Of a stretch of 64,000 bases of DNA, positions 3,350 to 57,848 are shown in pieces. Source of the stretch: Patescibacteria group bacterium (lineage in GTDB: Bacteria; Patescibacteriota; Patescibacteriia; 2-02-FULL-49-11); contig JBAZQN010000011.1 of assembly GCA_041645165.1 (NCBI GenBank), positions 1,254-65,253 on the forward strand. Direction: 5' to 3'. The stretch's first letter is position 1. Every line of letters starts with the position of its first letter. A program made the translations under genes and the position numbers. The notes under the pieces are model-generated. The model was not told the origin of the DNA and ran no database searches. It saw nothing but the letters and a program-made list of their open reading frames with translations.

Positions 3350-3437
3350 GGGAACTGACAATTTTGTTCGGCGTCGCGATCAAGCAGCTTGATACGCCTT
3401 TCCGCCTCAAAAATTGCAGTCCCCTCGCTTTTCCATC
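3350..3437 (+). repeat. structured ~85-nt repeat family S (acaattttgttcggcgtcgcgatcaagcagcttgatacgcctttccgcctcaaaaattgc), copy 1
   Basis: Four copies lie in this window (3350, 15723, 34155, 57767). The outer inverted repeats differ between copies but stay complementary. Confidence 0.8.
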
Positions 3438-3526
3438 AAGTCTGTGTGCAGTTATTTAAGATTAGGGTAGAAAAGATTGATGGTTTGAGGTACAATTATT
3501 CTGTTCCATGTTCCATATTTTAACCT

Positions 3527-4822
3527 ATGTCACTGAAACGTAAATTAATACAACGAATCTTGGGTTGGTTCGCCCGTAAAATAATCCATAAATATCAGCC
3601 AAGGGTGATAGGGATTACGGGAAGCGTCGGCAAGACGTCAGCGAAGGAGGCGGTCGCCAAAGTGCTTGAGGGGAGTTTTGCGGTGCGCAAAAATGAGAGG
3701 AATTATAATACGGAAATCGGCATCCCGCTTGCCATTATTGGCTATGCAGGGCAGCCGAAATCTTTTTTTAATTGGCTAGAGGTGCTTCTGAATGCGATTG
3801 AGCTGCTGCTTTTTAAAGACCGCGGCTATCCCACTGTACTCGTGCTTGAGATGGGCGCTGACCATCCCGGCGATATTCGGACGCTCACAAAAATTGCGCC
3901 TTGCGATATCGGCGTCGTAACCGCAGTGGGGCCCACGCACTTGGAATATTTTAGTACGGTGGAAGAAGTGCTGAAGGAAAAATCCATCCTCGTTTCACAT
4001 TTACGAAAAGGGGGAACGGCGATACTCAATCACGATGACGCGCTTGTGTATCCCTTGCGGCACAGAACACAAGCGCAGGTGTTTACCTATGGCTATGCGG
4101 CATCCGCATCGGTACAAGCGGTCGAGGCGAAGACCTCACTTGATCCTTGGCTTCAAAATAAAAAGAGCGATTATTTGGGCGGCGTGACGTTCAAGCTGGT
4201 TTTTCAAGGCGCGACCGTGCCCATCCGTCTCCAAGGGCTTATCGGTAACCCGCCCGTGTATGCCGCACTCGCCGCTGCGGCCGTCGGCATCAACCTCGGC
4301 CTCAATCTCCATACGATCGCAGAGCGGTTGAGTGCATTGAAAGGATTGCCTGGACGGCTCACACTCATCCGTGGCGTGCGCGGCACGCTTATTATTGATG
4401 ATACCTATAATTCCTCGCCCGTAGCTGCAGTGGAGGCGTTGTCGCTCCTGCGGGATTTGGCGCCTTCTGGACATCGCACGTGGGCGGTATTGGGCGATAT
4501 GCTTGAATTGGGCGCATACACAAAAGAAGCGCATGAGGAGGTGGGGAGCGCGGTGGTGGCGAAAGCGAACGCCAGTATGCTCATAACCGTGGGAGAACGG
4601 GCACGCGATATTGCGCGCGCAGCAATGAAAGCGGGGTTAAGCAGTAATATGGTGTTTAGTTTCGCCACCCCAGAGGAGGCGGGACGATTTATCCAAAATA
4701 GACTCCAGGAGGGAGATGTGTTGCTGGTGAAGGGCTCGCGGGGAATGCATATGGAAACCGTGGTAAAAGAGCTTATGGCAGAACCCTTAAGGGCGGATGA
4801 ATTGCTTGTGCATGAGCATTGA
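3527..4822 (+). CDS. murF: UDP-N-acetylmuramoyl-tripeptide--D-alanyl-D-alanine ligase
   Basis: 431 aa with the Mur-ligase P-loop ITGSVGKTSAKE and the overall MurF domain order. Confidence 0.9.
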   Translation: MSLKRKLIQRILGWFARKIIHKYQPRVIGITGSVGKTSAKEAVAKVLEGSFAVRKNERNYNTEIGIPLAIIGYAGQPKSFFNWLEVLLNAIELLLFKDRGYPTVLVLEMGADHPGDIRTLTKIAPCDIGVVTAVGPTHLEYFSTVEEVLKEKSILVSHLRKGGTAILNHDDALVYPLRHRTQAQVFTYGYAASASVQAVEAKTSLDPWLQNKKSDYLGGVTFKLVFQGATVPIRLQGLIGNPPVYAALAAAAVGINLGLNLHTIAERLSALKGLPGRLTLIRGVRGTLIIDDTYNSSPVAAVEALSLLRDLAPSGHRTWAVLGDMLELGAYTKEAHEEVGSAVVAKANASMLITVGERARDIARAAMKAGLSSNMVFSFATPEEAGRFIQNRLQEGDVLLVKGSRGMHMETVVKELMAEPLRADELLVHEH

Positions 4823-4859
4823 GGGTGTATGCGCACATTGGGGATGTATATTCCTACAC

Positions 4860-4945
4860 AAAACCCCCTCTTTAGTCTCCCCCTTTCAGGGGGAGAACAT
4901 CCATCAATCGTCCTCCCCTTAAAAAGGGGGAGGATGAAGGTGGGG
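4860..4945 (+). terminator. pair of GC-rich hairpins downstream of murF (tctccccctttcagggggaga; cctccccttaaaaagggggagg)
   Basis: Two perfect 7-8 bp stems with no U-tract. Related C-rich palindromes occur inside the MITE-A copies. Confidence 0.4.
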
Positions 4946-5022
4946 GTGTCGATGGCCGGTGAGCATGTGCTTAAAGGTATCTTGACTTTAAAGTTATAAA
5001 CTGGTAACTCATTATTACGCAC

Positions 5023-5094
5023 GGCCTCTTCGTCTAGCGGCTAGGACATCTGGTTCTCAGCCAGAGAACAGGGGTTCAATTCCCCTAGAGGCTA
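5023..5094 (+). tRNA. tRNA-Glu (anticodon CUC)
   Basis: Manual cloverleaf: acceptor GGCCTCT/AGAGGCT (G1-U72 wobble), D arm GTCT-AGCGGCTA-GGAC, anticodon stem TCTGG/CCAGA with loop TTCTCAG, T arm AGGGG-TTCAATT-CCCCT, discriminator A. No encoded CCA. Confidence 0.8.
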
Positions 5095-5107
5095 ATTTCT
5101 AATTTAG

Positions 5108-5200
5108 GGTCAGCCATAGAACCCGGGTTCAAATCCCGGTGGCGGTAGTTGGTGCGGGGTCAGCGCAGGGACACCGGTTCAAATCCGATTGGGGCTGCCA
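5108..5200 (+). other. two tandem tRNA 3'-half fragments (anticodon-loop TCAG onward: variable region, T arm GGTTCAAATCC, acceptor 3' strand; the second ends in CCA)
   Basis: Fragment 1 is about 5108-5147 (…TCAGCCATAGAAC-CCGGG-TTCAAAT-CCCGG-TGGCGGT-A). Fragment 2 is about 5156-5200 (…TCAGCGCAGGGAC-ACCGG-TTCAAAT-CCGAT-TGGGGCT-G-CCA). No matching 5' acceptor strand, D arm or anticodon stem lies upstream of either. Confidence 0.6.
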
Positions 5201-7301: not shown

Positions 7302-8063
7302 TTATTTGATCACTTTCAAGAATCCCTCGACAAGGCTTGCCGTTTCTTCGGTGCTCTGGAATACCGATTTCCAGACCACGACAATGTCAGCGTCGTTGAA
7401 GATGACGCTCTGCGCTTCGCGGAGGGTGTCGCCGCCTGCGACCGCGATAAGCACGTCATAGTTCCCTTTGATCCTCCTGATCTCATGCAAGGGGAGCATC
7501 TTTTGCCTGTTAATCCGCTCTTCATCCACGCCGCGGTGGAGGATAACCACCGGCGGTATTTTTTTAAGCGCGCGCAGCACGGTGAGGGGAAATTCCACGT
7601 TCATCATGTCCACCATGGCGTCGAGCCCGAGCGATTGGCAGGTATCGATAAATGCATTAAGTGTTTCCACTGGCGCGTTTCCCAGTGCTACCGCGGCGCT
7701 CGCGCCGGCACGCGCCGCCATTTCGACTTCCGTGGATCCTCTGTCCATGGTTTTTAAGTCAGCAATGATATAAGGAATTTCAGTTATTTCATTTTGGAGT
7801 TGGAGAGGATGAGAGAGGGAGGAAAGTGCAAACCGGGGGTTAATCGTAAAGCGTCCGTATAATTTTTCGCTCCACCAATATACGATTTTTCTGATGCCCT
7901 CCTCGCCATACTGCTTGATAAGGGGTGTGCCCGCCTCTATCAAAATGCGGTTATCAGGAGGCAGCTGTTCAATAATACTGCGGGCTTCTTCAAGCGTATT
8001 GTTGAGCGCCACTTGCAGATAGCGCTTTTTATGGTCAAGTTTTGACTTATTCTTATTCATCAT
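7302..8063 (-). CDS. 3-hexulose-6-phosphate synthase-like protein (OMP-decarboxylase/KGPDC family)
   Basis: 253 aa. Motifs LQVALN…IEAGTPLIK…IIADLKTMDRG…GAS match the HPS/KGPDC TIM-barrel signature (LQVALD…EVGTPLI…ADxKxxDxG). Confidence 0.6.
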   Translation of the reverse strand: MMNKNKSKLDHKKRYLQVALNNTLEEARSIIEQLPPDNRILIEAGTPLIKQYGEEGIRKIVYWWSEKLYGRFTINPRFALSSLSHPLQLQNEITEIPYIIADLKTMDRGSTEVEMAARAGASAAVALGNAPVETLNAFIDTCQSLGLDAMVDMMNVEFPLTVLRALKKIPPVVILHRGVDEERINRQKMLPLHEIRRIKGNYDVLIAVAGGDTLREAQSVIFNDADIVVVWKSVFQSTEETASLVEGFLKVIK

Positions 8064-8104
8064 ACCTCATTAGTATACCAGCATTTGAATGAAAAAATAA
8101 TAGA

Positions 8105-8264
8105 GATGCATATATACGCTCACTGGCCATCGACACCCCTACCACGCCACTCCCTTTTTACGGGGAGGACATAATCGTTGTTCTCCCCCTCCGGTAGGGG
8201 GAGAATCACGAGAGGGGGTTTCATTCGGGAATACATATCCCCCCAGTGAGCGAGTACAGATGCA
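8105..8264. repeat. MITE-A copy 1: ~160-bp element with imperfect terminal inverted repeats (gatgcatatatacgctcactgg / ccagtgagcgagtacagatgcat)
   Basis: A 12-bp direct repeat gcatttgaatga flanks it. The interior contains the C-rich palindrome tctccccctccggtagggggaga. A second, larger copy lies at 52209-52502. Confidence 0.7.
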
Positions 8265-8482
8265 TTTGAATGAGAATTTAGTTTTCTTAAGAAGACGTTA
8301 AATTGTCGATCGATGATTTAACGTCATTCACTTTTATGGAATATTTGTAGGATAGTTGGTAGATGAGTGAGTTGAATGCAAAAAATCCCGTACTTGAATG
8401 TATATAAGCCGGGATTTTTTATAAGTTGACCCATATTTGGGCACCTCCTTTCCTAGGTTGAGATTAGAGGCAGTGGTCGTAG

Positions 8483-8665
8483 TTACGACCGTTTATTTTT
8501 TCTTTCTGGGTGGGCACAGGTGACTGAAGCACCCACCAATTCTTCGTAAACTGTCAAATTTTTTTTATATCGACAGTTTACCCTTTTTTGCTGCCAAAAG
8601 AACTCCCTAGTCTGCGCCGATTTCATCTCAACCAGCGGACATTTTTCTGAATGGCAGATTTCCAT
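8483..8665 (-). CDS. small Cys-containing peptide A (about 60 aa, MEICHSEKCPLVEMK…)
   Basis: Perfect SD aaaggaggtg 6 nt upstream of the ATG. Four Cys residues (C-x4-C … C … C). Paralogous to peptide B immediately upstream. Confidence 0.4.
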   Translation of the reverse strand: MEICHSEKCPLVEMKSAQTREFFWQQKRVNCRYKKNLTVYEELVGASVTCAHPERKNKRS

Positions 8666-8686
8666 GATACTCACCTCCTTTCAGGT

Positions 8687-8854
8687 TTATTTTTCATTCT
8701 TTTTTGGGAGGGGCAGTCGCTTGCACTCCCCATTCCCAGTAGGATTTGGAATACGATGTTTACATTTATTCCAAATCCACATCCACCCAACCTCTCCTTT
8801 CCCCTCAATAACAAGAGGGCAAGGCAACGAATGGCAATTTCCATACCTAGTCAA
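8687..8854 (-). CDS. small Cys-containing peptide B (about 55 aa, TTG start, …YGNCHSLPCPLVIEGK…)
   Basis: Perfect SD gaaaggaggtg 7 nt upstream of the TTG. Shares the CHSxxCPLVxE.K motif with peptide A at DNA and protein level. Its stop overlaps the SD of peptide A. Coordinates are good to about 1 nt. Confidence 0.35.
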   Translation of the reverse strand: MTRYGNCHSLPCPLVIEGKGEVGWMWIWNKCKHRIPNPTGNGECKRLPLPKKNEK

Positions 8855-8962
8855 TTTTATTCACCTCCTTTCATGGAGTTTTTAGGAGAACATTTTTTAC
8901 GCTCACACCATAGCATTGAAATCCCTGTATGTAAAGTGGTTCTGTGCAATATGGGATAGAAT

Positions 8963-9559
8963 TTGGTATACTGTTTAGAGAAGGAAGATACAAGGTACAA
9001 GAAACAAGTAACAAGAAATTTGATGTTGGATAAAAAGAGTATGCAAATTTCAGGGATAAGCGAAAAAGAATTACAAAAGAAATTGCGGGTGGGGTGGTTT
9101 ACGTTTACCTGCTGCGAGGATTCGACCATTATCATGACGGAAGTCATGAATGAGCATTGGGAAGAATGGAAGCGGTTTATTGATTTCCGCCACGCGCGGG
9201 TGTTGCGGACGGATAATATCCTCGATGAGCTTGACGTGGCGTTTGTGGAAGGCGCCATTTCGTCAGACCGTCAAGCGGCGCGCCTGAAGGAGATCCGCGA
9301 GAAAGCGAAACGCCTCGTGGCAGTAGGGGCGTGCGCGGTCATAGGGATGCCCTCATCCCAGCGCAATTTATTTGACGAGTCCACAAAGCGCGCCATCCAA
9401 TTCCTCGTGGACCGGTTTGGGCAGAAGGAATTGGTGAGGACGGTGAAGGAGCTTGTAAAGGTAGACGCAGAACTACCCGGTTGCCCGATGAATGAACAGA
9501 AATTTCTAGAAGTGTTGGAGAGGTATCTTAAGGAGTTTAATATTATCAAGGGATCATAA
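8963..9559 (+). CDS. [NiFe]-hydrogenase small subunit (NuoB-like Oxidored_q6 fold)
   Basis: Motifs WFTFTCCEDS … GACAVIGMP … GCPMNE match the proximal-cluster Cys ligands of hydrogenase small subunits. The likely true start is the ATG at 9041 (MQISGISEKEL…). It pairs with the large subunit at 11178. Confidence 0.7.
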   Translation: MVYCLEKEDTRYKKQVTRNLMLDKKSMQISGISEKELQKKLRVGWFTFTCCEDSTIIMTEVMNEHWEEWKRFIDFRHARVLRTDNILDELDVAFVEGAISSDRQAARLKEIREKAKRLVAVGACAVIGMPSSQRNLFDESTKRAIQFLVDRFGQKELVRTVKELVKVDAELPGCPMNEQKFLEVLERYLKEFNIIKGS

Positions 9560-9594
9560 CTCACCCCAGCCCTCTCTTATCCTAAGAGAGGGAG
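9557..9594 (+). repeat. HP1 palindromic element TAActcaccccagCCCTCTCTTAtccTAAGAGAGGGag, copy 1 (its TAA is the stop codon of the upstream gene)
   Basis: Perfect 10-bp stem with a 3-nt loop. Identical copies begin at 10514, 10627 and 11077. Three variant hairpins in reverse orientation lie at 14040-14165. Confidence 0.9.
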
Positions 9595-9634
9595 GTTGTC
9601 ATTCTTCATTGGTGTTTTATTAAGGAGAATTATT

Positions 9635-10516
9635 ATGAGACATAAAGGACACAATAGACCTCATGATGTAGCAAGCGAGAAACGCACCGCATGGAAACGT
9701 TCTCACCCGATAACTAAAGAATTGCTGGCCAAGGGCGCACAAAAATTTATGTCGAAAGAAAGACACCCTCAAATCGATAAGGCATTTTCCCCAAAAGTAC
9801 ATTGCGTATGCTGCATGGATGAAGGGACGGCGCATATGGAAAGAGGCAGTAAGCTGTTCATGGCAGGGAGCGGGATATTGTATCCCGCGGCAAGCTGGGA
9901 TGATCGACTTAATCGCGTGGCAGATTTGTTTATTGATTTGCATATCACAGAAATTACCAGCCATGACGGGTGCGGCGCCGCCGGCATTGCGTTTAAGCGG
10001 GATGGGGGGGGAGAAGGCACTGGATGCAAAACAGCTGATGAGTATGGGGAAAAATGGTGCAGTGATTTGCAGGCTATAATGGATACAAAGCTGGACGTGC
10101 CGGAAAATGTGGAGGGTGTACAAAACGTCCATATTCACGAACATGAAATGGAAAGGCCGGGAGAGTTCCATATCGCGAGAGTGGTCTGGTTTGATGCCAC
10201 CGGTGAATTTACCAAACCCGATATGTTGGGGGAGGAGATTCCAAAGGGATTTGCGATAAATTATCATGCGTTCGCTTCACGGGAGATGGGCGGCTATCCG
10301 CTTAGTGAATTGGAAGTGGCTATAAAAATCGCGTTCAGCGATCATGGGTTTGACAAAGAATTTACCAAAGGCCATCCTTTCGTCATTATCGTTATTGCCA
10401 AGGACGAGGATCAGAAGAAAGAAGTAACGGAATTGATTGGTGGAATCATGCAAGAGAAAGAAGAGATCTCGCAATACAAACACAGAATTCGTATTGATGG
10501 TTTTATTCATGAATAA
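9635..10516 (+). CDS. hypothetical Cys-rich protein inserted between the hydrogenase subunit genes
   Basis: SD aaggag 8 nt before the ATG at 9635 (the ORF track opens at an upstream TTG, 9596). Motifs VHCVCCMDEGTAH and SHDGCGAAG. No recognisable family. Bounded by HP1 copies. Confidence 0.5.
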   Translation: MRHKGHNRPHDVASEKRTAWKRSHPITKELLAKGAQKFMSKERHPQIDKAFSPKVHCVCCMDEGTAHMERGSKLFMAGSGILYPAASWDDRLNRVADLFIDLHITEITSHDGCGAAGIAFKRDGGGEGTGCKTADEYGEKWCSDLQAIMDTKLDVPENVEGVQNVHIHEHEMERPGEFHIARVVWFDATGEFTKPDMLGEEIPKGFAINYHAFASREMGGYPLSELEVAIKIAFSDHGFDKEFTKGHPFVIIVIAKDEDQKKEVTELIGGIMQEKEEISQYKHRIRIDGFIHE

Positions 10517-10551
10517 CTCACCCCAGCCCTCTCTTATCCTAAGAGAGGGAG
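10514..10551 (+). repeat. HP1 copy 2
   Basis: Same 38-nt element; its TAA is the stop codon of the 9635..10516 gene. Confidence 0.9.
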
Positions 10552-10664
10552 CCATTATTCCTCCTCGTGGTAAAGACCAATCTCTATGGAGTTCTGGAGA
10601 CAATTCTGCACATTCTTAAGGATTCGTAACTCACCCCAGCCCTCTCTTATCCTAAGAGAGGGAG
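10552..10664 (+). repeat. remnant of a tandem duplicate of the HP1-linker-DUF559 unit (linker stub, last 61 nt of the DUF559 ORF, HP1 copy 3)
   Basis: 10569-10629 is identical to the 3' end of the DUF559 gene (11019-11079). It is followed by a complete HP1, then the linker hairpin HP2 plus SD plus ATG of the intact gene. Confidence 0.8.
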
Positions 10665-10707
10665 CCATTATTCCTCCTCTTAAGGTAAGAGGAGGTAAGG
10701 AGGAGTT

Positions 10708-11079
10708 ATGAAGGCAACAAATCGGACATATAATGATCGAGAATTGAAATCGTTAAGAAGAACATTACGGAAGAATTTTACCGATCAAGAGAGATTATTG
10801 TGGAGTAAATTGCGCAATAGGCAATTAGACGGACATAAGTTTTATCGGCAATACGGTGTTGGTCGTTATGTGGTAGACTTTTATTGTCCTGAAAAACGAA
10901 TTGTAATTGAATTAGACGGAGGGCACCATACCGAGAAGACGAACCTTCAGCTTGATGCTGAAAGGGATAAGGCATTGAACACCCTCAACATTCGAGTATT
11001 AAGATTTTGGAACCATGAGGTAAAGACCAATCTCTATGGAGTTCTGGAGACAATTCTGCACATTCTTAAGGATTCGTAA
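10708..11079 (+). CDS. DUF559 / Vsr-like endonuclease-domain protein
   Basis: 123 aa with C-terminal motifs …VDFYCPEKRIVIELDGGHHTEK…DAERDKALNTLNIRVLRFWNHEV typical of the DUF559 restriction-endonuclease-like fold. Preceded by HP2 (cctcctcttaaggtaagaggagg) plus SD ggaggagtt plus ATG. Confidence 0.7.
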   Translation: MKATNRTYNDRELKSLRRTLRKNFTDQERLLWSKLRNRQLDGHKFYRQYGVGRYVVDFYCPEKRIVIELDGGHHTEKTNLQLDAERDKALNTLNIRVLRFWNHEVKTNLYGVLETILHILKDS

Positions 11080-11160
11080 CTCACCCCAGCCCTCTCTTAT
11101 CCTAAGAGAGGGAGCCATTATTTCTCCTCTTAAGGTAAGAGGAGGTAAGGAGGAGTTATG
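11077..11160 (+). repeat. HP1 copy 4 plus HP2-SD-ATG linker, exact duplicate of 10627-10710
   Basis: The 84-nt identity supplies an SD and ATG at 11158, opening a 10-codon mini-ORF that overlaps the large-subunit start at 11178. Confidence 0.9.
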
Positions 11161-11177
11161 ATTTATAACGTTACGTT

Positions 11178-12488
11178 ATGCATAAAATAGATTTTGATCT
11201 CTCATTGGAAGAGGTTACCAAAATAGAGGGCGCAGCGACTTTGAGCGTGAAAGTGCGGGATGCAAAGGTGGAGGAGTGCAAGTTCGGCATCGCCGAGTAT
11301 AAAAGGTTTTATACGCAGGCGATGGTGGGAAAGCCCGCCTCTGCGCTCCCGCAGCATTTGGCGCGCATCTGCGGCACCTGCTCAAACGCCCATATCATGG
11401 CGTCGCTCGATGCAGTGGAGCACGCACTGGGCATTGTCCCTTCGGCGCAAACGAAGGTGTTGCGCGCGCTTACGATGGATGGGCTCATGATCCGCGACCA
11501 TGCGCTTCATCTTTATCTTTTTTCCTTACCTGACCTTTTAGGAAAAGACTCGATTCTCGCATTGGATGAAAATGATCCGGAAGAACACCAGCTGCTCCAT
11601 GACGCGTTTGACGTCAAGGCCGCGGGTAATCACTTGTCGCAGCTTGTGGCAGGCAGGAGCGTGCATGCGCCGATGCCGGTGGTGGGAGGTTTTTTGAAAA
11701 TACCAGATTCCGCGGGCATTGAGAAATCTCGGCGGGAACTCGAGCAAATAAGGCCTGCTCTACTGCGGCTGATAGGCGTATACGGGAAAAGTACATTTAT
11801 TCTTCTTTCCAAGACCAATTATGTGGCGCTTACCGCCAATCCGTACAGTTTCTTGCAGGGAGATCTTTGCGCGAGCAATGTTGCGTGCATTCCGGAAGAG
11901 CAGTTTATGGAGCATTTAAGCCATGTGGTGGTGCCTTATTCGCAGGCCTCCGCCTACGCGTTCCAGGGAGAGCTTTATCGGGTTGGCGCTTTGGCTCGCT
12001 TGAATTTGAACAAAGATGCGCTCAATCCCCGCACGAAAGCGGACGCTGCCCAATATCTTGCACGGTTCCCTTCAGATAACGCATATGATAACAATCTCGC
12101 GCAGGCAATCGAAATCCTGCACTGCATAGATGAGGCGCTGGAGATGCTCTCTACCCATTCATTCCATGCAGAGACGCCGCAAAAGGCGAACCCTCATGCG
12201 GGCGAGGGCATTGGCGTGATTGAGGCTCCCCGCGGCACGCTCTACCATAAGGTGGAGCTGGATGAAAAGGGGATAGTCACGCACGGCGACATCGTGGTGC
12301 CCACGGGGCAGAACCAGCTCGCCATTGAATGGGATATCAAGCAGTTAGTGGAGCAGTGGTTGAAGGAGGGGAAGGAGATTGGGAATAAAAAAGCGCTCGA
12401 ACATGAAATCGAGCAGCTTATCCGCGCGTACGACCCTTGCATGAGCTGCGCGGCGCATTTTTTGGAAGTTACGTGGGATGAAGCATAG
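11178..12488 (+). CDS. [NiFe]-hydrogenase large subunit
   Basis: N-terminal RICGTCSNAH (RxCGxCxxxH, L1) and C-terminal DPCMSCAAH (DPCxxCxxH, L5) Ni-Fe ligand motifs. 436 aa fits a group-3-type enzyme. Confidence 0.85.
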   Translation: MHKIDFDLSLEEVTKIEGAATLSVKVRDAKVEECKFGIAEYKRFYTQAMVGKPASALPQHLARICGTCSNAHIMASLDAVEHALGIVPSAQTKVLRALTMDGLMIRDHALHLYLFSLPDLLGKDSILALDENDPEEHQLLHDAFDVKAAGNHLSQLVAGRSVHAPMPVVGGFLKIPDSAGIEKSRRELEQIRPALLRLIGVYGKSTFILLSKTNYVALTANPYSFLQGDLCASNVACIPEEQFMEHLSHVVVPYSQASAYAFQGELYRVGALARLNLNKDALNPRTKADAAQYLARFPSDNAYDNNLAQAIEILHCIDEALEMLSTHSFHAETPQKANPHAGEGIGVIEAPRGTLYHKVELDEKGIVTHGDIVVPTGQNQLAIEWDIKQLVEQWLKEGKEIGNKKALEHEIEQLIRAYDPCMSCAAHFLEVTWDEA

Positions 12489-14010: not shown

Positions 14011-14039
14011 ACGCGGAGAAATACGGTTCGTAACTCCTC

Positions 14040-14165
14040 CCCGCCTCCTCTTATCCTAAGAGGAGGAGTCGATTTTGGCCTTCCCTCTTATTTTAAGAGG
14101 GAAGATTTGATGCATCACCCTCTCTTAAAGTAAGAGAGGGATGGGGTGAGTTACGAGAAACGAGG
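14040..14165 (-). repeat. three HP1/HP2-type hairpins in reverse orientation (cctcctcttatcctaagaggagg, ccctcttattttaagaggg, ccctctcttaaagtaagagaggg) plus cgtaactcacccca
   Basis: This is the reverse complement of the ctcaccccag-hairpin unit. The DMT transporter ORF reads through it for about 23 codons. Confidence 0.8.
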
Positions 14166-20040: not shown

Positions 20041-20095
20041 CCTTGTCGTTTATCCACCTCCGCCGAATACTCTGCAGTTCCGCTCGAGGAGGGGT

Positions 20096-20966: not shown

Positions 20967-21050
20967 ATTTTTTTCGGTCTTTAAAAAATTAAAAAGGGCT
21001 CTTATAATAAAAAAGAAAAAATTTAATAAATGAAAACCGAGTAATATGTC

Positions 21051-46453: not shown

Positions 46454-46858
46454 TTGGTAATTGATTATTTACATATGGTTTTCCAGATCATCGCGTGCGC
46501 GTTAATCATATTGATTGTGGGGCGGATCGCATGGCAATTCCGCCGAGGCACGATCAGCGGGAAAGAATTTTTCTTTTGGTCGTTTTTTTGGGTGCTTGCC
46601 GCGGCGGCCATACTCGTGCCCAACGCCTTAACCATGATCGCGAATATATTAGGCATCGGGCGGGGGACTGACCTCGCATTTTACGGCTCATTCGTCATCG
46701 TCGCCTATGTGCTCTTCAGAATTGTGGTACGGATGGATAAGATGGAAAGGGATATCACAAAAGTAGTGAGACATTTGGCGCTTGATGATACGCATCAGGT
46801 ATCACGTATTAAGTATCAGGGGACTGACCGCGATACGCTTGAGAATCGTGATACGTAA
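46454..46858 (+). CDS. small 4-TM membrane protein (DUF2304-like, GT2-associated); the C-terminal ~25 aa are encoded by a taatac heptamer repeat
   Basis: Hydrophobic profile. Nucleotides 46775-46875 are the cgtgatacgtaatacctaatacc repeat. Confidence 0.4.
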   Translation: MVIDYLHMVFQIIACALIILIVGRIAWQFRRGTISGKEFFFWSFFWVLAAAAILVPNALTMIANILGIGRGTDLAFYGSFVIVAYVLFRIVVRMDKMERDITKVVRHLALDDTHQVSRIKYQGTDRDTLENRDT

Positions 46859-46889
46859 TACCTAATACCTAATACTTACTATTATCACC

Positions 46890-48044
46890 ATGCCCCGCGT
46901 CGCCGTGATCATAGTCACCTATAATAGCGCCCGGTTCCTCCCGGAACTTTTCGTAAGCCTTAAGGCCATGCAGCATCCCGCCGGCGGGGTGCAGTTTATT
47001 TTTGTGGACAATGCTTCTGCCGATCACAGTCCAGAATTGGTACGCGAGGCAATGCCGGATGCGGCATTGGTTCGTGAAAAAGAAAATAGAGGATTTTCTG
47101 CAGGTGTGAATGCAGGCTTGAGGCACCCGTTGGCGCAAGGCGTGGAATTTATCGCGCTTCTCAATCCTGACACGGTGGTGCATCCGGATTGGCTCACGGC
47201 CCTCGTGAACGCGTTGGAAGGACAGCGTAAGGCTGTCTCTGCTCAATCTCTTATTCTTTACGCGCAGGATCGCGAGAAGGTAAATTCAGCGGGAAATAGT
47301 ATCCACTTTTTAGGGTTTGGTTTTAGTCAAGCTAACGGGCAGTCCCGATCTGTCATTCTGAACGAAGTCCCGATACCATCGGGACGGAATGAGGAATCGC
47401 CCACGAATGTGGGCTCGCATACGCGAGAGATCCTTCGTCCCGATGCGCTTGGGACTCAGGATGACGTTAAACTCAGCACACATTTCATCACCTACGCGAG
47501 CGGGGCTGCAGTGCTGTACCGACACAATGCGTTGAAGGAAATTGGTTTATTCGACGAAAACCTTTTTATGTACCATGATGATCTTGACGTGGGGTGGAAA
47601 TTTTTGTTACGCGGATACCAGAATATTTTAGTACCCTCCTCGATAGTTTATCATCATTACGAATTTTCACGCAGCATCCGGAAATATTACTGGATAGAGC
47701 GCAATAGGCTCTTGCTCCTGCTTACGCATTATAAATTCAGCACCCTGTTATTAATTTTACCCGCATTAATTATTCTTGAATTCGGGTTGATGTTTTTCGC
47801 GCTCTACCGCGGTTTTTTTGGCGCGCGACTGCGTGCGTACGTATGGATATTTGTTCATGTGCCTTTAATTATGAAAAAACATAAATACGTGCAGAATATA
47901 AGAACACAGCCTGATAAGGCCGTACTTGGATCATTTACCGGTGTCATTACTGACCAAGAGATAAGCAATCCTCTTGTGGAATATGTTATGAATCCGGTGT
48001 TTGCATTATATCTTGCCTTTCTCCGTTATGTTATACGATGGTAG
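46890..48044 (+). CDS. GT2 glycosyltransferase carrying an in-frame RPE-like palindromic insertion
   Basis: VAVIIVTYNSARFL … FVDNASAD … DxD region. Nucleotides 47345-47465 (gtcattctgaacgaagtcc…gggactcaggatgac) encode …SRSVILNEVPIPSGRNEESPTNVGSHTREILRPDALGTQDD…. Confidence 0.8.
   Translation: MPRVAVIIVTYNSARFLPELFVSLKAMQHPAGGVQFIFVDNASADHSPELVREAMPDAALVREKENRGFSAGVNAGLRHPLAQGVEFIALLNPDTVVHPDWLTALVNALEGQRKAVSAQSLILYAQDREKVNSAGNSIHFLGFGFSQANGQSRSVILNEVPIPSGRNEESPTNVGSHTREILRPDALGTQDDVKLSTHFITYASGAAVLYRHNALKEIGLFDENLFMYHDDLDVGWKFLLRGYQNILVPSSIVYHHYEFSRSIRKYYWIERNRLLLLLTHYKFSTLLLILPALIILEFGLMFFALYRGFFGARLRAYVWIFVHVPLIMKKHKYVQNIRTQPDKAVLGSFTGVITDQEISNPLVEYVMNPVFALYLAFLRYVIRW
47345..47465 (+). repeat. 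RPE-like palindromic element, copy 1 (gtcattctgaacg…cccacgaatgtgggctcgcatacgcgagagatccttc…ggtcaggatgac)
   Basis: Terminal arms are inverted-complementary. Copies lie at 48701-48794 and, reversed, at 50514-50573. Confidence 0.85.
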
Positions 48045-48078: not shown

Positions 48079-49494
48079 ATGCCATACCGAATCGCGCATA
48101 TCACCCCCGTGTACCCGCCTTATGCAGGCGGTATTGGGGTTGTGGCGAAAAATATGGCGGGAGGGTTGGCAGGAAGAAGATGGCAAGTGGAAACGTTTAC
48201 GCCCACGTTGGATAACTCCACCCAACCTCCTCTTAAGTTAAGAGGAGGGGAAGGAGGAGTTATGGATAATAAAATAACGTATCTCAAACCATGGTTGCAT
48301 GTGGGCAATGCGGCGCTCGTGCCGCAATTAAGGAAATTAGAAGGATACGATATCATTCATCTGCATTATCCTTTTTTCGGCGGGGCTGAATTTGTTCTTC
48401 TGGGTATAATTTTTCAACGATTTAATTCCGCGTTTTTCAGCGATAAGGCCACGCGTGACGTTCCGCGTAAGTCAGCGTTCATTTTACAATACCATCATGA
48501 CGCAGACGCTAAAGGTTTGAAGGGGATGATGTTTAAACTTTATGACAGGATTGTGCTCCCGCGTTTGATCACGCGCGCCGACAGGGTGATCGTATCAGCG
48601 ATGGATTATGCGCAACATTCACGCATTGCGAAATACATAAGCGATAAGTTTGTCGAAATACCGTTTGGGGTTGATGCGAAACGATTTGAACCGTTAGGTA
48701 GTCATTCTGAACGTAGTGAAGAATCTCCCGTGCATACGGGCACACCGCTGGCATTCGCCAGAGATCCTTCCCCCGACTCGCGGGGTCAGGATGACAAATC
48801 CGTTATTGTTCTCTTCGTCGGTTCCCTCGACCGCGCGCATTGGTTTAAAGGGTTAGAGGTATTACTTCACGCGTTCGCCATACTGAAACAAGAAAATGAA
48901 CAAAATCGTTTAAAATCTACTCATTTAAACCCTACCCTAAATACCACGAGCCAACTTCGCCATAGTAGCCAAAGGCTACGTCGGCTGAATCGTGGTAATC
49001 CTGCCTGCGCAGGCAGGAGGGAGGGATTGAATTTGAAATGTTTGGTTATAGGCGAAGGTAATCTTAAAGAGAAATATAAAAAAATGGCACAAGATTTAGG
49101 GATTCAAGACCAAGTGCAGTTTTTTGGCAACGTGTCTCAAACGCAATTGCCTGATTATTACCGCAACGCGGACCTTTTTGTGTTTCCTTCGGTATCGCGC
49201 GCGGAAGCATTCGGATTGGTGGCGCTTGAAGCAATGGCGTCAGGTTTGCCCGTCATCGTAAGCGATCTGCCGGGAGTGCGGACGCTGGTGGAAGAGGGGA
49301 TAAACGGATTTAAGGTGCCTGTGAATGATCCACGTGCGTTGGCGCGACGCATTCAGGATCTGATTGAAGATAAGTCACTACGCGGCAGTATGGGACAAAA
49401 AAGCAGAGAAAAGGTTTTAGAGGGTTATACATGGGATAAGGCTATTGACAAGATAGAGAGAGTGTACTTAGATATGTTGGTAAATAAACCATGA
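48079..49494 (+). CDS. GT4 glycosyltransferase with three in-frame repeat-derived insertions
   Basis: N-terminus MPYRIAHITPVYPPYAGGIG. C-terminus EAFGLVALEAMASGLPVIVSD (Glycos_transf_1). Insertions: 48216-48273 (HP2 hairpin plus ggaggagttATG), 48701-48794 (RPE-like), about 48900-49030 (palindromes gccatagtagcc…ggctacg and cctgcctgcgcaggcagg). Confidence 0.75.
   Translation: MPYRIAHITPVYPPYAGGIGVVAKNMAGGLAGRRWQVETFTPTLDNSTQPPLKLRGGEGGVMDNKITYLKPWLHVGNAALVPQLRKLEGYDIIHLHYPFFGGAEFVLLGIIFQRFNSAFFSDKATRDVPRKSAFILQYHHDADAKGLKGMMFKLYDRIVLPRLITRADRVIVSAMDYAQHSRIAKYISDKFVEIPFGVDAKRFEPLGSHSERSEESPVHTGTPLAFARDPSPDSRGQDDKSVIVLFVGSLDRAHWFKGLEVLLHAFAILKQENEQNRLKSTHLNPTLNTTSQLRHSSQRLRRLNRGNPACAGRREGLNLKCLVIGEGNLKEKYKKMAQDLGIQDQVQFFGNVSQTQLPDYYRNADLFVFPSVSRAEAFGLVALEAMASGLPVIVSDLPGVRTLVEEGINGFKVPVNDPRALARRIQDLIEDKSLRGSMGQKSREKVLEGYTWDKAIDKIERVYLDMLVNKP
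48216..48273 (+). repeat. HP2-SD-ATG element (cctcctcttaagttaagaggagg ggaaggaggagttATG) inserted in-frame inside the GT4 gene
   Basis: Same module that precedes the DUF559 and hydrogenase-large-subunit starts. It creates an internal SD plus ATG at 48271. Confidence 0.8.
48701..48794 (+). repeat. RPE-like palindromic element, copy 2 (in-frame in GT4)
   Basis: gtcattctgaacgtagtgaagaatctccc…agatccttcccccgactcgcggggtcaggatgac encodes HSERSEESPVHTGTPLAFARDPSPDSRGQDD. Confidence 0.85.
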
Positions 49495-55324: not shown

Positions 55325-55445
55325 ATCCGAAATCCTAAACAAGCTCAAAACACAAAATTCGAAATATTCCTATCCCTTAATATTTCGATGATTTGAATCT
55401 CGAATTTTGGATTTGTTTAGGGTTTAGAGTTTAGAATTTAGTATT
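55305..55445. repeat. heptamer-periodic quasi-palindrome upstream of dnaK (ctaaatc/cgaaatc/ctaaaca … gtttagg/gtttaga/gtttaga)
   Basis: Homologous to 42735-42875. Confidence 0.8.
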
Positions 55446-55452
55446 TATATAT

Positions 55453-57363
55453 TTGAGTATGTCAAAAATTATAGGCATAGACCTCGGTACTACCAATTCA
55501 GCGGTTGCCGTCATTGAAGGCGGCAGCCCAAAAATATTAGAAAACAGCGAAGGCGCGCGCACCACGCCCTCCGTTGTGGCCGTCAATAAGAACGGCGAGC
55601 GGTTCGTGGGGATGACGGCGAAACGCCAGGCAGTCACCAATCCCCAAAATACCATTTACTCGGTAAAGCGCCTTATCGGGCGCAGATACGATGACCCCGA
55701 AGTGCAGCGTTCGCAAAAAACCCTGCCTTACAGAATCGTGAAGTCGGGTGAAGGCGTGAAAGTGGCCATGGCAGAGAAGGAATATTCCCCACAGGAGATT
55801 TCCGCAATGATTTTGCAGAAGATCAAGGCGGACGTGGAGGCAAGACTGGGCGAAAAGGTGACGGAGGCGGTGATCACCTGCCCGGCGTATTTTGACGATT
55901 CGCAGCGTAAAGCAACGAAAGAAGCAGGCGAGATCGCGGGATTTACCGTGAAAAGGGTGCTCAATGAACCTACGGCTGCGGCGCTGGCGTATGGATTCCA
56001 GAAGAAGAAGGATGAAAAGATCGCCGTGTATGATTTGGGCGGCGGCACCTATGACATTTCCATTCTAGAAGTATCCAGCGATACCGTGGAGGTAAAGGCC
56101 ACCAACGGGGACACGCACCTTGGAGGGGATGATTTTGACCAAAGGGTCATTGATTGGATTATTGCAGAATTCAAGAAGGATCAAGGCATCGACCTTTCGA
56201 AAGACACGCTCTCGCTCCAGCGCATCAAAGAGGCCGCGGAAAAGGCGAAGATCGAGCTGTCCACGGCCATGGAAACGGAAATTAACCAGCCGTTTATCAC
56301 CTCTGGCGCTGACGGCCCAAAGCATCTGCTCTTGAAGCTGACCCGGGCGAAATATGAGGATCTGGTGGGCGATCTGATTGAAAAAACCAAAGAGCCGATG
56401 AAGAAAGCATTGAGCGACGCAAAGCTCACCGTGAAGGACATTGATGAAATTGTCATGGTGGGAGGAATGACGAGAATGCCCAAAGTATTAGCGATGGTGG
56501 AAGAGTTTTTCGGGAAGAAGCCGCATATTGGCGTAAACCCCGATGAGGTCGTGGCGGCAGGCGCGGCGGTTCAAGCAGGCATCATGCAGGGTGAGGTGAA
56601 AGACGTATTACTGCTTGATGTGACTCCTCTTACGCTCGGCATTGAAACGCTGGGCAGCGTGGCCACGCCTATCATTCAGAGGAATACCACCGTCCCGACG
56701 AAAAAATCACAGGTCTTTTCGACCGCCGCTGACGGGCAAACCTCCGTGGAGGTGCACGTGGTGCAGGGAGAGCGCCCCTTAGCGCACGATAATAAGAGTT
56801 TGGGGAAATTCATTCTTGACGGCATTCCTCCCTCGCCGCGCGGGATCCCGCAGGTTGAGGTTACCTTTGACATTGACGCGAACGGCATACTCCATGTCAC
56901 CGCAAAAGATCGCGCCACGGGCAAAGAGCAGAAAATCACCATCACCGCGTCCACCGGCCTTTCCAAAGATGAGATTGAGCGGATGAAAAAAGAAGCGGAA
57001 GCGCATGCCGTTGACGACGCGAAAAAGAAAGAGCAGATCGAATTAAAGAATACTGCCGACAGCATGGTCTATACCACCGAAAAGACCTTGCGCGATGCGG
57101 GCGACAAGGTATCGGCAGAGGTGAAGAAGGGGATCGAGGAGAAGGTGGAGGCGCTCAAAAAGGTGAAAGACGGCGACGACACCGATGCGATAAAGAAGGC
57201 AACCGATGCTCTCTCTCAGGAAATCCAAAAGGTAGGCGAACAGCTTTATAAAGCCGCCGCGGAAGCGAAAGGAAATACGGAGGGAGAGGTGAAGGCAGAA
57301 GATAAACAGGAGGATAAAAAAACTGTAGATGCGGAGTACAAGGATGTGAAGGATGATAAATAA
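55453..57363 (+). CDS. dnaK: molecular chaperone DnaK (Hsp70)
   Basis: [18 protein letters not shown], and full-length Hsp70 domain structure. Confidence 0.95.
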
Positions 57364-57364
57364 T

Positions 57365-57450
57365 GACGTATCCCGTATTATGTATTACGTTATGTCGTGA
57401 TATCTATATACGTAATACCTAATACCTAATACCTAATACTTCAACCACTA
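57365..57450. repeat. heptamer repeat tract (cgtaatacctaatacctaatacctaatac)
   Basis: Same word family as 30835-30905, 32180-32250 and 46775-46875. Confidence 0.8.
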
Positions 57451-57755
57451 TGATTGATAATAAATCGGGACAAACACAGATTCAAATTCGTGCGTCAGAC
57501 GAGGTGTTGCGAGGCTTGTACGCCAACGCGATGCAGGTGGTGCATACTAAAGAAGAGTTCATAATTGATTTTCTTAATCTCTATCCGCACCAAGGGCTTG
57601 GAGTAGTGAATGCGCGGGTGTTGACCTCGCCGGGGCATGCGAAAAGGATTGTGGCCGCGCTCGCGGACAATATTAAGAAATATGAAGCGCAATTCGGCGC
57701 GATAGAGGCGGCGCAAGAGCCTGCGGAGGGCAAGGAGATGGGATTTAAGGCATAA
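57450..57755 (+). CDS. hypothetical small protein (DUF3467-like) between dnaK and dnaJ
   Basis: 101-aa ORF with operon position only. Confidence 0.4.
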   Translation: MIDNKSGQTQIQIRASDEVLRGLYANAMQVVHTKEEFIIDFLNLYPHQGLGVVNARVLTSPGHAKRIVAALADNIKKYEAQFGAIEAAQEPAEGKEMGFKA

Positions 57756-57766
57756 CTTCGTTCGTC

Positions 57767-57848
57767 CTGGACAATTTTCTCGGCGGCGCGATCTAGCAGC
57801 TTGATGCGCCAGACCGCCTCGTAAATTGCCAGGACTCACTTTTAGGGA
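57767..57848 (+). repeat. repeat family S copy 4
   Basis: Outer stem cctgg…ccagg. Confidence 0.8.

Follow-up and report, generated by a model that had tools for sequence, protein, structure and literature searches.

A mobile hairpin repeat with covarying arms and an orientation that follows GC skew in Candidatus Uhrbacteria

Why should the outer arms of a short repeat differ from copy to copy, yet stay complementary within each copy? An initial annotation of the stretch of DNA analyzed here (64,000 nt, hereafter the window) described four copies of an 85-nt repeat, S, whose outermost 4 to 6 bp behave in this way, and read S as a structured RNA or DNA element rather than a plain MITE. The observation is confirmed, while the interpretation is partly supported. 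Below, we weigh how S is folded, where it inserts, and how it is oriented.

A pattern search with the shared 19-nt core, allowing up to 3 mismatches, gives exactly four matches in the window, where shuffled sequences lead one to expect none. The covariance model R1, run with filters off, recovers the same four copies at 79 to 104 bits, all on the + strand, and finds no fifth copy above noise in the window. The conserved unit is about 92 nt, slightly longer than the annotated extent, because conserved boxes flank the variable stem (5' AACGCTYSG and 3' CYTCGCTT). In about half of the copies, the unit then runs into a short T tract (CGCTTTT). Pfam bears out the annotated gene contexts of the three intergenic copies, namely, PBP transpeptidase/Mur ligase, sugar dehydratase/CAP, and DUF3467/DnaJ downstream of DnaK. 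The copies and the host gene of copy 2 are as follows.

3341-3434, + strand: copy 1, whole unit, 104.4 bits with R1; begins 37 nt past the upstream stop codon, between an ftsI-like PBP gene (1541-3304) and a murF-like ligase gene (3527-4822)
15715-15806, + strand: copy 2, 78.8 bits; antisense and in-frame in the gene of an 820-aa membrane protein
15199-17661, - strand: host gene of copy 2, encoding the 820-aa polytopic membrane protein; 91 homologues
34146-34238, + strand: copy 3, 101.2 bits; between a dehydratase gene (33099-34130) and a CAP-domain gene (34246-35289)
57754-57846, + strand: copy 4, 83.6 bits; directly after the stop of a DUF3467 gene (57450-57755) and 178 nt ahead of dnaJ (58024)

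The family occurs only in a small clade of the ultra-small Candidatus Uhrbacteria (Patescibacteria). Across five Uhrbacteria sources, the window included, we count 18 distinct copies at 17 insertion sites, so that the family as a whole is described from a sample of only 17 sites.

S folds as a single long imperfect hairpin. From foot to top, it consists of P0 (2 bp), a pyrimidine mismatch loop, P1 (8 bp), a bulged A, P2 (7 bp, AT-rich), and the core. Copy 1 illustrates the arrangement, followed by the P1 arms of the other copies (all + strand).

3342-3350, + strand: 5' box AACGCTTCG at the hairpin foot, conserved in most copies
3345-3346 and 3427-3428, + strand: P0, G3345-C3346 pairing with G3427-C3428 at the foot
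3350-3357, + strand: P1 5' arm GGGAACTG, pairing with 3417-3424
3358, + strand: bulged A, extrahelical, between P1 and P2
3359-3365, + strand: P2 5' arm CAATTTT, pairing with 3410-3416
3366-3409, + strand: asymmetric conserved core, with loop GTTC/TCA, P3 GGCG/CGCC, CGCGATC..GCGCC, and a variable apex
3410-3416, + strand: P2 3' arm AAAATTG, pairing with CAATTTT
3417-3424, + strand: P1 3' arm CAGTCCCC, with one A·C mismatch
3424-3430, + strand: 3' box CTCGCTT, followed by TT, conserved in most copies
15723-15730 and 15789-15796, + strand: copy 2 P1, GGGGATGG/CCATCCCC; bulged A at 15731
34154-34161 and 34221-34228, + strand: copy 3 P1, GTGATGGG/CCCATCCC; bulged A at 34162
57763-57770 and 57829-57836, + strand: copy 4 P1, CGTCCTGG/CCAGGACT; bulged A at 57771

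The outer-arm complementarity thus extends over 7 to 8 bp in the window copies, more than had been annotated. We tested covariation on two alignments, one made with MAFFT (14 copies) and one fitted to the model (the 18 distinct copies). Each P1 position shows 4 or 5 standard pair types, and per position, both-sided changes number 5 to 10, against 0 or 1 one-sided changes. Paired cells make up 91% overall versus 40 to 47% with slid partners, and the covariation score is not matched in any of 500 shuffles. P1 is free in sequence but not in pairing: its arms are under pressure to remain complementary. The compensated change annotated in copy 3 (acGatttt/aaaatCgc, A-T to G-C) is also real: it lies in P2, whose second pair covaries, being A-T in 12 and G-C in 5 of the 18 copies. 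Of the two P0 pairs, one is GC in 13 and the other CG in 11 of the 18. In contrast to the arms, P3 and P4 show no variation across copies, 35 columns are invariant in the alignment of 14 copies, and the bulged A, present in 17 of the 18, stays unpaired in RNA and DNA folds alike. Apex pairs receive no support in the covariation alignments; copy 2 has an altered apex (AAGCGACCC), and copy 4 belongs to a divergent core subtype (GGCGGCGCG...CCAGACC...CGTAAATTG). The concern that the outer arms might be parts of longer, flank-specific sequences is answered by an identical P1 (GGGAACTG) at 7 unrelated loci and by the conserved boxes outside P1: P1 belongs to the S unit.

Sites of S are filled or empty between related species, and the same subfamily occurs at unrelated loci; S is mobile. 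The spacer orthologous to the copy 1 site measures only 7 nt in the related locus L112, with no S copy. At the copy 2 site, L113 has no insert and L112 only a remnant of half the element, and the copy 4 site, filled in L110 and L115 by orthologs, is empty in L117, L116, and L119. Elsewhere, two S copies adjoin corA in L115, and a divergent copy lies 3' of dnaK in L110 and L115; neither arrangement is present in the window. Empty and filled spacers cannot be aligned. Copies land in spacers just past stop codons or, in-frame, in protein loops. Five in-frame copies lie in genes (the 820-aa membrane protein, its 752-aa orthologue, RsmI, TatD, and an NHL membrane protein), and the reading frames used vary by copy, some relying on copy-specific indels.

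Copy 2 was annotated correctly as in-frame and antisense; it reads ..SEGMAIFEAERREGRLIATPNKIVHPQTG.. within its host open reading frame. This frame is a real gene with 91 homologues, most of them 630 to 720 aa long. Their alignment shows that two loops of the 820-aa protein carry repeat-derived, lineage-specific inserts: homologue P0003 lacks the copy 2 insert, and P0004 retains only a remnant of its 5' half. These loops are insertion hot spots used by repeats of several families.

Could S then be a MITE of the usual kind, left by internal deletion of a DDE-type insertion sequence and bounded by its terminal inverted repeats, with paired variation that only marks subfamilies from different masters? 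S is small, dispersed, devoid of coding capacity, and polymorphic between species, it has inverted-repeat ends, and short CGCT motifs resembling direct repeats stand on either side of the hairpin. Yet MITEs bound by a transposase conserve their terminal repeats, whereas in S the interior is invariant and P1 varies most; because its inverted-repeat ends are the most variable part, S is not a classical TIR/TSD MITE. The CGCT motif is the same at nearly all sites, unlike random target duplications, no parent insertion sequence is seen in the window or the related loci, and cut-and-paste DDE transposition gives no reason for the full orientation bias described below. We therefore consider this origin improbable. 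The phrase "rather than a plain MITE" holds in a narrow sense only since S, filled or empty between related species, is still a mobile and largely selfish repeat.

Copies that have remained in place show a second kind of constraint. In two orthologous pairs, copy 3 with its counterpart in L080 and copy 4 with that in L110, the cores differ at 5 of 119 positions (2 of 59 for copy 3), against a divergence of 0.26 at four-fold sites of six flanking genes (binomial, 3e-10). The core of retained S copies has thus diverged much less than four-fold degenerate sites; simple selfish dead copies would not predict this, and it hints at a host-level role or continuing correction. Conversely, P1 of copy 3 is replaced in L080 by GGAGGCAG/CTACCTCC, a difference at 11 of 16 positions that exceeds four-fold divergence in this one orthologous pair (p = 4e-4).

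Such rapid but paired change raises an explanation of the covariation that needs no selection. The correction of quasi-palindromes is a well-established source of mutation in bacteria, and template switching that copies a change from arm to arm would keep any long hairpin self-complementary. The large excess of both-sided over one-sided changes and the rarity of mismatches agree with it, and a P1 evolving faster than four-fold sites in one pair while staying paired is easier to obtain by concerted mutation. However, the features that are conserved best (the bulged A, the asymmetric internal loops, and the 2x2 mismatch loop) are ones that the same process should erase as well, and it leaves the orientation bias and the core conservation in situ unexplained. 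Template switching can contribute to P1 evolution; it cannot be the whole explanation, and we give little credence to it as the source of the pattern.

To ask which strand matters, we computed the GC skew of the ±3-kb flanks on the element strand. It is positive for all 18 copies computed, representing 16 of the 17 sites (two-sided sign test over the 16 sites, ~3e-5). Fourteen of the 17 sites are sense to the neighboring genes; the three antisense copies also have positive skew (copy 2, +0.19; L102, +0.10; L112, +0.18). Since S lies on the G-rich strand at 16 of 16 tested sites, antisense copies included, its orientation follows replication, not transcription. The other repeat families of the window, I1 to I4, occur in both orientations. 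We assume that the G-rich strand is the leading strand, based on general bacterial behavior and a gene-strand bias of 73% in the window.

These results bear directly on the possibility, left open by the initial annotation, that S is a structured RNA. On this account, S would act primarily in cis within mRNAs, as a 3'-end stabilizer, a partial intrinsic terminator, or an intercistronic RNase processing site, spread by duplication and kept by the host. The predominance of sense sites fits this account, as do eight intergenic copies starting no more than 75 nt past a co-oriented stop codon, the T run after about half of the copies, stable RNA folds (z-scores of -1.4 to -4.8), and core conservation in situ well beyond four-fold sites. 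Effects on transcripts are known for other hairpin repeats, Correia, ERIC, and SPRITE among them (PMC10969869). Still, the replication strand accounts for all tested sites and the gene strand for only 14 of 17. Mismatches in P0 to P2 comprise 6 G·T and 7 A·C; because the two are equally frequent, there is no RNA-strand signal, and both DNA strands give the same hairpin (-16 to -21 kcal/mol). The neighboring genes have no function in common (PBP/Mur ligase, dehydratase/CAP, DnaJ, superoxide dismutase [SOD], CbiM, IleRS, and GyrA), and five copies lie within coding sequences. The Rfam comparison suggested earlier returned no match, even at an E value of ≤10, and a consensus terminator scan, which permits loops of 3 to 8 nt only, was silent at copies 1, 3, and 4. 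A functional structured RNA is thus not favored, and we regard a primary role in mRNA as unlikely. Far less credible still is the idea that the copies are themselves genes, each for a short peptide or a small trans-acting RNA. The stable ~90-nt fold and a consensus open in one + strand frame and two - strand frames would allow it. On the element strand, however, neither the copies nor the sequence immediately before them shows a promoter-like site, and copies lie within coding sequences or directly after stop codons. Moreover, in-gene frames are inconsistent, P1 would make any encoded peptide hypervariable, and Rfam is silent.

Because the arms covary, insertions occur in both spacers and genes, and orientation is fixed to replication, we take S to be, most probably, a mobile DNA element that depends on its hairpin, not an RNA gene. 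The reading that we prefer, with moderate confidence in its specifics, is a non-autonomous, hairpin-forming, REP/RPE-like repeat of ~92 nt on which a putative structure-specific enzyme would act when the DNA is single-stranded at the replication fork. The G-rich strand, as the leading-strand sequence, would serve as the lagging-strand template and be exposed single-stranded at every passage of the fork; the + strand hairpin would therefore be the active form. An enzyme acting in trans would recognize the irregularities of the hairpin (the bulged A, the internal loops, and the core) and might process S at the CGCT boxes of the foot, a placement of the cleavage sites guessed from the boxes. If it reads shape and unpaired bases rather than stem sequence, changes in the stem would survive only when compensated. 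By analogy, precedents would be the Y1 HUH transposases of IS200/IS605 and the RAYTs of REP/REPIN. The TnpA of IS200/IS605 recognizes, on one strand, imperfect subterminal hairpins that carry an extrahelical base; because it inserts into the template of the lagging strand, these elements acquire an orientation bias linked to replication. Neither the window nor ~300 kb of related loci yielded a gene for a transposase, an HUH/Y1 protein, a RAYT, or a reverse transcriptase. With 14 of 17 sites sense to genes, the S hairpin is also carried in mRNAs, where it may secondarily affect 3'-end stability or termination.

Several known systems resemble S in part. The REP/REPIN repeats of Proteobacteria, with their Y1 HUH RAYTs, are likewise short non-coding hairpins, numbering in the tens per genome and persisting over long times in their clade; their stem pairing is kept, the single-stranded hairpins are recognized by a single-copy trans-acting enzyme, and the REPIN hairpin is similar in size to S. 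However, S is one asymmetric hairpin, whereas a REPIN is a doublet of two inverted REPs; S has CGCT boxes in place of a GTAG-type foot motif; and several S copies lie in genes, while REPs are extragenic. S also belongs to another phylum and shares no sequence similarity with REPs, and no RAYT gene was found in the sequence searched. The mechanism proposed for S agrees on three counts with that of the IS200/IS605 family and its miniature derivatives, the PATEs: the hairpin that is recognized, strand-specifically, is imperfect and carries an extrahelical base; activity on the lagging-strand template biases orientation relative to replication; and insertion takes place beside a short conserved sequence, with no true target duplication. 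Those elements have two different subterminal hairpins, at the left and right ends, whereas in S one hairpin spans the unit, and neither a TnpA nor a TnpB gene is seen with S.

Like S, the attC sites of integrons are imperfect palindromes (57 to 141 bp) with conserved structure and covarying stems, which act as folded single strands and in which extrahelical bases set the strand choice. S lacks the R/L box consensus, however: its GTTCGGC does not fit GTTRRRY, and its GCCGAAC does not fit RYYYAAC. Nor does it form an integrase-linked cassette array, lying instead among core housekeeping genes and in coding sequences, and, in contrast to attC, it has a highly conserved core sequence.

Correia, ERIC, and SPRITE are dispersed repeats of ~100 to 150 bp, co-transcribed with their neighbors, whose RNA hairpins can be cleaved or serve as terminators (PMC10969869). 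They have conserved terminal inverted repeats, and Correia has a TA target duplication, whereas the ends of S vary and its interior is fixed; in addition, the orientation of S follows replication. Finally, the Rickettsia palindromic elements (RPEs) are repeats of ~100 to 150 bp in a reduced genome, located in spacers and in-frame in unrelated housekeeping genes, where they insert an extra peptide into surface loops; they have no known transposase (PMC10969869). S shares with RPEs the palindromic form, the spacer and in-frame insertions, and the unrelated host genes, and differs in host phylum and sequence. For S, without any claim on RPEs, we can add that orientation tracks GC skew and that the core is kept at orthologous sites.

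The four S copies reported by the initial annotation are confirmed, all on the + strand: a 19-nt core pattern allowing up to 3 mismatches retrieved exactly these four, and none from shuffled sequences. A repeat finder placed S first among its direct families, with 0 inverted members. We also built a covariance model, R1, from 15 S copies and searched the window with filters off; the four copies scored 79-104 bits, with the rest of the window at noise. The conserved unit is slightly larger than the proposed 85 nt (~92 nt), the extra length being two boxes beyond the variable stem, AACGCTYSG on the 5' side and CYTCGCTT on the 3' side.

Copies of S in the window (conserved unit ~92 nt)
3341-3434, + strand, copy 1
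15715-15806, + strand, copy 2
34146-34238, + strand, copy 3
57754-57846, + strand, copy 4

An exact-pattern scan of 185,579 species genomes, one genome per species, returned 75 stretches, 72 of them chance matches in high-GC genomes; the sole genuine S genome was that of Candidatus Uhrbacteria RIFCSPLOWO2_02_FULL_49_11. In the metagenome scan, 10 of 36 stretches were genuine. Further copies came from contigs reached via homologs of DnaK and of the 820-aa membrane protein that hosts copy 2, itself identical (100%) to the WC659_04800 product of a Patescibacteria MAG. An 824-aa ORF beside the copy in the related locus L102 was considered as another homolog of this protein and rejected, as its sequence suggests GyrA. 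The dataset analyzed here comprises 18 distinct copies, drawn from five sources and occupying 17 insertion sites. Pattern scans of viral contigs and phage records gave no match to S. The suggested Rfam search likewise assigned S to no family, either at the gathering threshold or at E<=10 (copy 1 and four copy-bearing loci); in the window, the single match at gathering threshold is tRNA-Glu at 5023-5094.

Folding S as RNA or as DNA, on either strand, yields the same long hairpin, whose parts are listed from the foot upward.

Parts of the S hairpin
3345-3346 with 3427-3428 (copy 1), + strand, P0: two G-C pairs at the hairpin foot
above P0, pyrimidine mismatch loop, 2x2 or 3x2
above the mismatch loop, P1, 8 bp
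between P1 and P2, single extrahelical A
P2, CAATTTT/AAAATTG
above P2, internal loop GTTC/TCA
P3, GGCG/CGCC
apical part, CGCGATCAAGCAGCTTGATGCGCC, then CTTTC on the 3' side

The covariation ascribed to the outer arms is well supported: 0 of 500 shuffles reached the score of the 14 aligned copies, and an 18-copy model-fitted alignment gave the same picture. Of the cells in the 14-copy MAFFT alignment, 91% were paired, compared with 40-47% when partners were slid. Covariation is confined to P1, one P2 pair and, more weakly, P0. Positions 3-7 of P1 show 4-5 pair types each, changed on both sides in 5-10 copies and on one side in 0-1. The compensated internal change noticed earlier falls in P2, whose second pair is A-T in 12 copies but G-C in 5; the P0 pairs have both-sided changes in 1/18 and 3/18 copies. 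P3 and the lower apical stem are invariant and therefore uninformative for or against structure, and the top apical pairs are frequently unpaired. The bulged A is kept in 17/18 copies. One of the 17 sites holds a divergent relative (L110, 7311-7420) that retains the foot, P1, the bulge and P2, with a partly different interior. P1 variants can be arranged in a series of single compensated steps, e.g., GGGAACTG to GGGAATTG to GGGAATCG, indicating many independent events rather than one inherited change.

Complementary arms might also be host sequence, had S inserted in the center of pre-existing palindromes or terminators. We reject this scenario because conserved boxes lie outside P1 and because a single P1, GGGAACTG/CAGTTCCC, recurs at seven loci that are unrelated to one another: downstream of ftsI, of sodA, of a YraN-family gene and of an unnamed L079 gene, upstream of ileS, within an NHL protein gene, and in the vicinity of corA. 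The same observations dispose of the possibility, raised by the initial annotation against its own reading, that the arms are flank-specific sequence.

Next to genes, S lies sense to the neighboring or host gene at 14 of 17 sites, and eight intergenic copies start <=75 nt after a co-oriented stop codon. GC skew was computed on the element strand, over ±3 kb flanks with the copy itself removed. Each of the 18 copies computed, from 16 of the 17 sites, had positive skew (two-sided sign test over 16 sites, ~3e-5), including the three antisense copies (+0.19, +0.10 and +0.18). The G-rich strand of bacterial genomes normally corresponds to the leading-strand sequence and serves as template for the lagging strand; on this assumption, replication strand predicts the orientation of S better than gene strand does. 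Skew is positive for the window as a whole, the 13-20 kb stretch with - strand genes included, and since it persists over these genes, it is replicative rather than coding-driven. Other repeat families of the window (I1-I4) occur in both orientations.

S had been described as a structured RNA or DNA element, and our results favor a DNA-level hairpin. A selected RNA is expected to show G·U pairs on its own strand, with A·C pairs scarce. Among the P0-P2 cells, 279 are Watson-Crick, 6 G·T and 7 A·C, so the balance of G·U against A·C (6 vs. 7) carries no signal of an RNA strand. Genes adjoining S copies share no function, and a scan of copies 1, 3 and 4 found no promoter-like site within S. It is on these three observations, together with orientation, that the DNA reading is preferred. 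No terminator was called at copies 1, 3 and 4, by a scan that is blind to long interrupted hairpins. RNA folds of the - strand are more stable than those of the + strand, in keeping with purine-rich loops; it is no sign of transcription. The RNA hairpin is nevertheless present in most host transcripts and may have side effects there. Since a DNA hairpin explains the S data better, covariation alone does not identify an RNA. The family separates three signals, namely paired-stem covariation, complete replication-strand orientation and conservation at orthologous sites, and offers a practical caution to metagenomic searches for RNA motifs.

Comparison of filled and empty sites bears on the mobility of S. 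We ordered relatives by the four-fold degenerate sites of dnaK and dnaJ, which differ from the window by 0.25 in L110/L115, 0.34 in L117 and ~0.55 in L116 and L119. The copy 4 site is filled in the window and L110/L115 and empty in L117, L116 and L119, a distribution that fits a single gain. In L110/L115, dnaK is followed by a divergent copy and corA has two copies at its side; none of these three is in the window. The ftsI-murF spacer, which holds copy 1, measures 222 nt in the window vs. 7 nt in L112. The copy 2 site is empty in L113; L112 retains just TTCGGGGGTGGACAATTTT, the 5' half of S, at this site and has a full copy elsewhere in the same membrane-protein gene. These comparisons fix neither the exact ends of S nor a target duplication. 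A CGCT-containing motif lies on both sides of the hairpin, with an unchanged sequence at almost every site. The copy 4 spacer is unalignable with those of L117, L116 and L119 past the stop codon; the copy 2 site differs from L113 and L112 by 123 nt that include a second small palindrome; every close TatD homolog has a different repeat insert in the loop concerned; and the corA spacer of L115 does not align with the window.

S lies in-frame inside real genes at 5 of 17 sites. Copy 2 is indeed in-frame and antisense within the 820-aa membrane-protein gene, as is the copy in its 752-aa ortholog in L112; the sense insertions are in an RsmI-type methylase (TP_methylase), a TatD hydrolase (TatD_DNase) and an NHL membrane protein. 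Homologs of the host genes exist without the insert, and some coding copies hold small indels that keep a frame open. S has entered essential genes (rsmI, tatD) in-frame, a Rickettsia-like pattern of which a full-text literature search found no description in Patescibacteria.

Several of these sites hold other small repeats. A perfect palindrome, CTGTCATTAATTATGACAG (15797-15830, +), lies directly 3' of copy 2, overlaps its 3' box and belongs to the 123-nt difference from the empty ortholog in L113. The 820-aa protein (gene at 15199-17661, -) has a second loop (residues ~205-275) with a different repeat-derived insert (..PPEPAPAWSPDTIGSGTGEAEP..), and in its homologs P0002, P0003 and P0004 this loop carries other inserts or an S copy. 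The TatD hot spot is the loop after GLDY. The S-bearing RsmI gene of L097 (1606-2496, -) has a second in-frame insert (..CHCERSEAISGGLPRRPDEVGTPRNDI..) that appears to be the translation of another repeat family. Between copy 4 and dnaJ, 57870-57990 is another repeat (TTCTTGTTGCGGAACTCG ... CAGTCCTCACGGCGAACACTGTCTCCCCGCC), also found in L117 (3470-3660) and absent from L110/L115; therefore, lineages gained different elements in the DUF3467-dnaJ spacer.

Two copies, 3 and 4, have true orthologs in the RIFCSPLOWO2 species; the syntenic blocks that contain them are 77-96% identical at the nucleotide level. Their cores differ at 2/59 positions (copy 3 vs. L080) and 3/60 positions (copy 4 vs. L110), compared with 0.26 of the four-fold sites of six flanking genes (n=975), a combined result with a binomial probability of 3e-10. 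As the cores are far better kept than four-fold sites, retained copies are not decaying; the surrounding spacer DNA is essentially unalignable. P1 differs between copy 3 and L080 at 11/16 positions with pairing kept, faster than four-fold sites (p = 4e-4), and between copy 4 and L110 at 2/16. The former difference may reflect fast compensated change, arm-to-arm template switching or replacement.

How does S compare with known systems? The initial annotation held that it is not a plain MITE, and this stands in a narrow sense. Classical MITEs, as DDE derivatives, have conserved terminal inverted repeats, whereas in S the P1 ends are the most variable part (4-5 pair types) and the interior is invariant. 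No parent insertion sequence was found in the window or related loci. An integron attC site was also rejected: GCCGAAC and GTTCGGC do not fit RYYYAAC ... GTTRRRY, and the neighbors are core genes. The window has a single tyrosine recombinase (24495-25346), and 9 kb separate it from the closest S copy. S is therefore neither a classical TIR/TSD MITE nor an attC site, nor is it an Rfam RNA.

REP/REPIN elements consist of two inverted REPs with a symmetric hairpin and a GTAG-type foot, whereas the S core is asymmetric (loops GTTC/TCA and U/CUUUC) and its foot is CGCT, without GTAG. They are also extragenic, unlike S with its 5/17 coding sites. In genes, S behaves like Rickettsia palindromic elements (PMC10969869), sitting in-frame in unrelated conserved genes without destroying them. 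With IS200/IS605 elements it shares an orientation bias that puts the active strand on the lagging-strand template (taking G-rich as leading strand), and its imperfect hairpin, conserved extrahelical base and replaceable stem suggest a likeness, one of form only. IS200/IS605 elements, however, have two distinct end hairpins and a TnpA (Y1 HUH), whereas S is one hairpin spanning the whole unit. By the tests applied, S belongs to none of REP/REPIN, IS200/IS605 and the Rickettsia elements, the last weighed by insertion behavior, not sequence. It is a small hairpin-forming mobile repeat, an already known kind, and probably works like REP/REPIN or IS200/IS605 ends. What stands out is its complete replication-strand orientation and strong orthologous-site conservation.

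Folded single-stranded DNA elements are served by structure-specific enzymes in IS200/IS605 (TnpA), REP/REPIN (RAYTs) and, more distantly, attC (IntI). By analogy, S would be mobilized, and perhaps also continually recognized, as a single-stranded hairpin at the replication fork. This proposal draws on the strand-specific imperfect hairpin with its protected extrahelical base and loops, the sequence-free stem, the short foot motif on both sides, the lack of coding capacity and the orientation locked to the lagging-strand template; we infer a structure-specific enzyme, its cleavage sites and the absence of target duplication. Neither the 64-kb window nor ~300 kb of related loci yielded a transposase or RAYT candidate, and their Pfam annotations include no Y1_Tnp match. 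Apart from housekeeping genes, the surroundings of S copies encode just one XerC/D-like recombinase, a DUF559 protein and a Fic protein, and the L079 gene between two copies encodes a coiled-coil membrane protein. A rather improbable reading is that S is more than selfish and that its core is a host-maintained, replication-strand-specific single-stranded DNA hairpin signal. It could, for example, let a protein of priming or restart, or one associated with the fork, load on the lagging-strand template, or serve in cis a class of hairpin-specific DNA enzymes undescribed in Patescibacteria; insertions in coding sequences would then be by-products of spread. Should a mobilizing enzyme be found, single-strand hairpin transposition, or a REPIN-like long-term association of repeat and host, would reach a new phylum.

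Patescibacteria (CPR) have tiny streamlined genomes, yet the window is crowded with small hairpin repeats. A second palindromic family, TAACTCACCCCAGCCCTCTCTTATCCTAAGAGAGGG, has at least 6 copies in both orientations; a 143-nt unit is duplicated on either side of a 123-aa DUF559/MTES_1575 ORF (10708-11079). Several further families measure 50-110 nt and, in contrast to S, have copies in both orientations within one replichore; some of them are also present in L084, L092 and L102. Degenerate 7-nt tandem runs directly precede the start codons of many + strand genes; rather than chance, they suggest a recurrent leader or promoter-proximal feature.

Other repeats in the window
9554-9609, 10514-10712, 11019-11161, 14027-14156, 48212-48248, TAACTCACCCCAGCCCTCTCTTATCCTAAGAGAGGG family
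17932-18029/53334-53431, repeat family of 50-110 nt
28410-28495/54241-54326, repeat family of 50-110 nt
7182-7289/52321-52428, repeat family of 50-110 nt
15116-15162/63819-63865, repeat family of 50-110 nt
30869-30908, 32216-32255, 46851-46890, 57408-57447, 7-nt tandem runs, ATACGTAATACCTAATACC type
42839-42873, 55414-55462, 7-nt tandem runs, TTTAGAG type
8985-9015, 46341-46399, 7-nt tandem runs, AAGATACAAG type
30922, 32252, 46890, 57450, 42879, 55453, + strand, starts of genes preceded by 7-nt runs (examples)

The region 20001-24000, with a G+C of 0.34, a GC skew of ~0 and - strand genes, adjoins the tyrosine recombinase gene (24495-25346) and may be a foreign island. At 5023-5200, tRNA-Glu(CTC) (5023-5094) is followed by two fragments (~5107-5148 and 5156-5200) that look like the 3' halves of tRNAs and have a GGTTCAAATCC T-arm; tRNA-Glu is the only tRNA called here by ARAGORN and Rfam, and the fragments may be remnants of integration at the tRNA gene. 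Finally, L084 encodes a 1216-aa isoleucyl-tRNA synthetase-like ORF (8035-11685, +) in which a histidine phosphatase domain (His_Phos_1, residues 556-715) splits the catalytic domain between its two halves.
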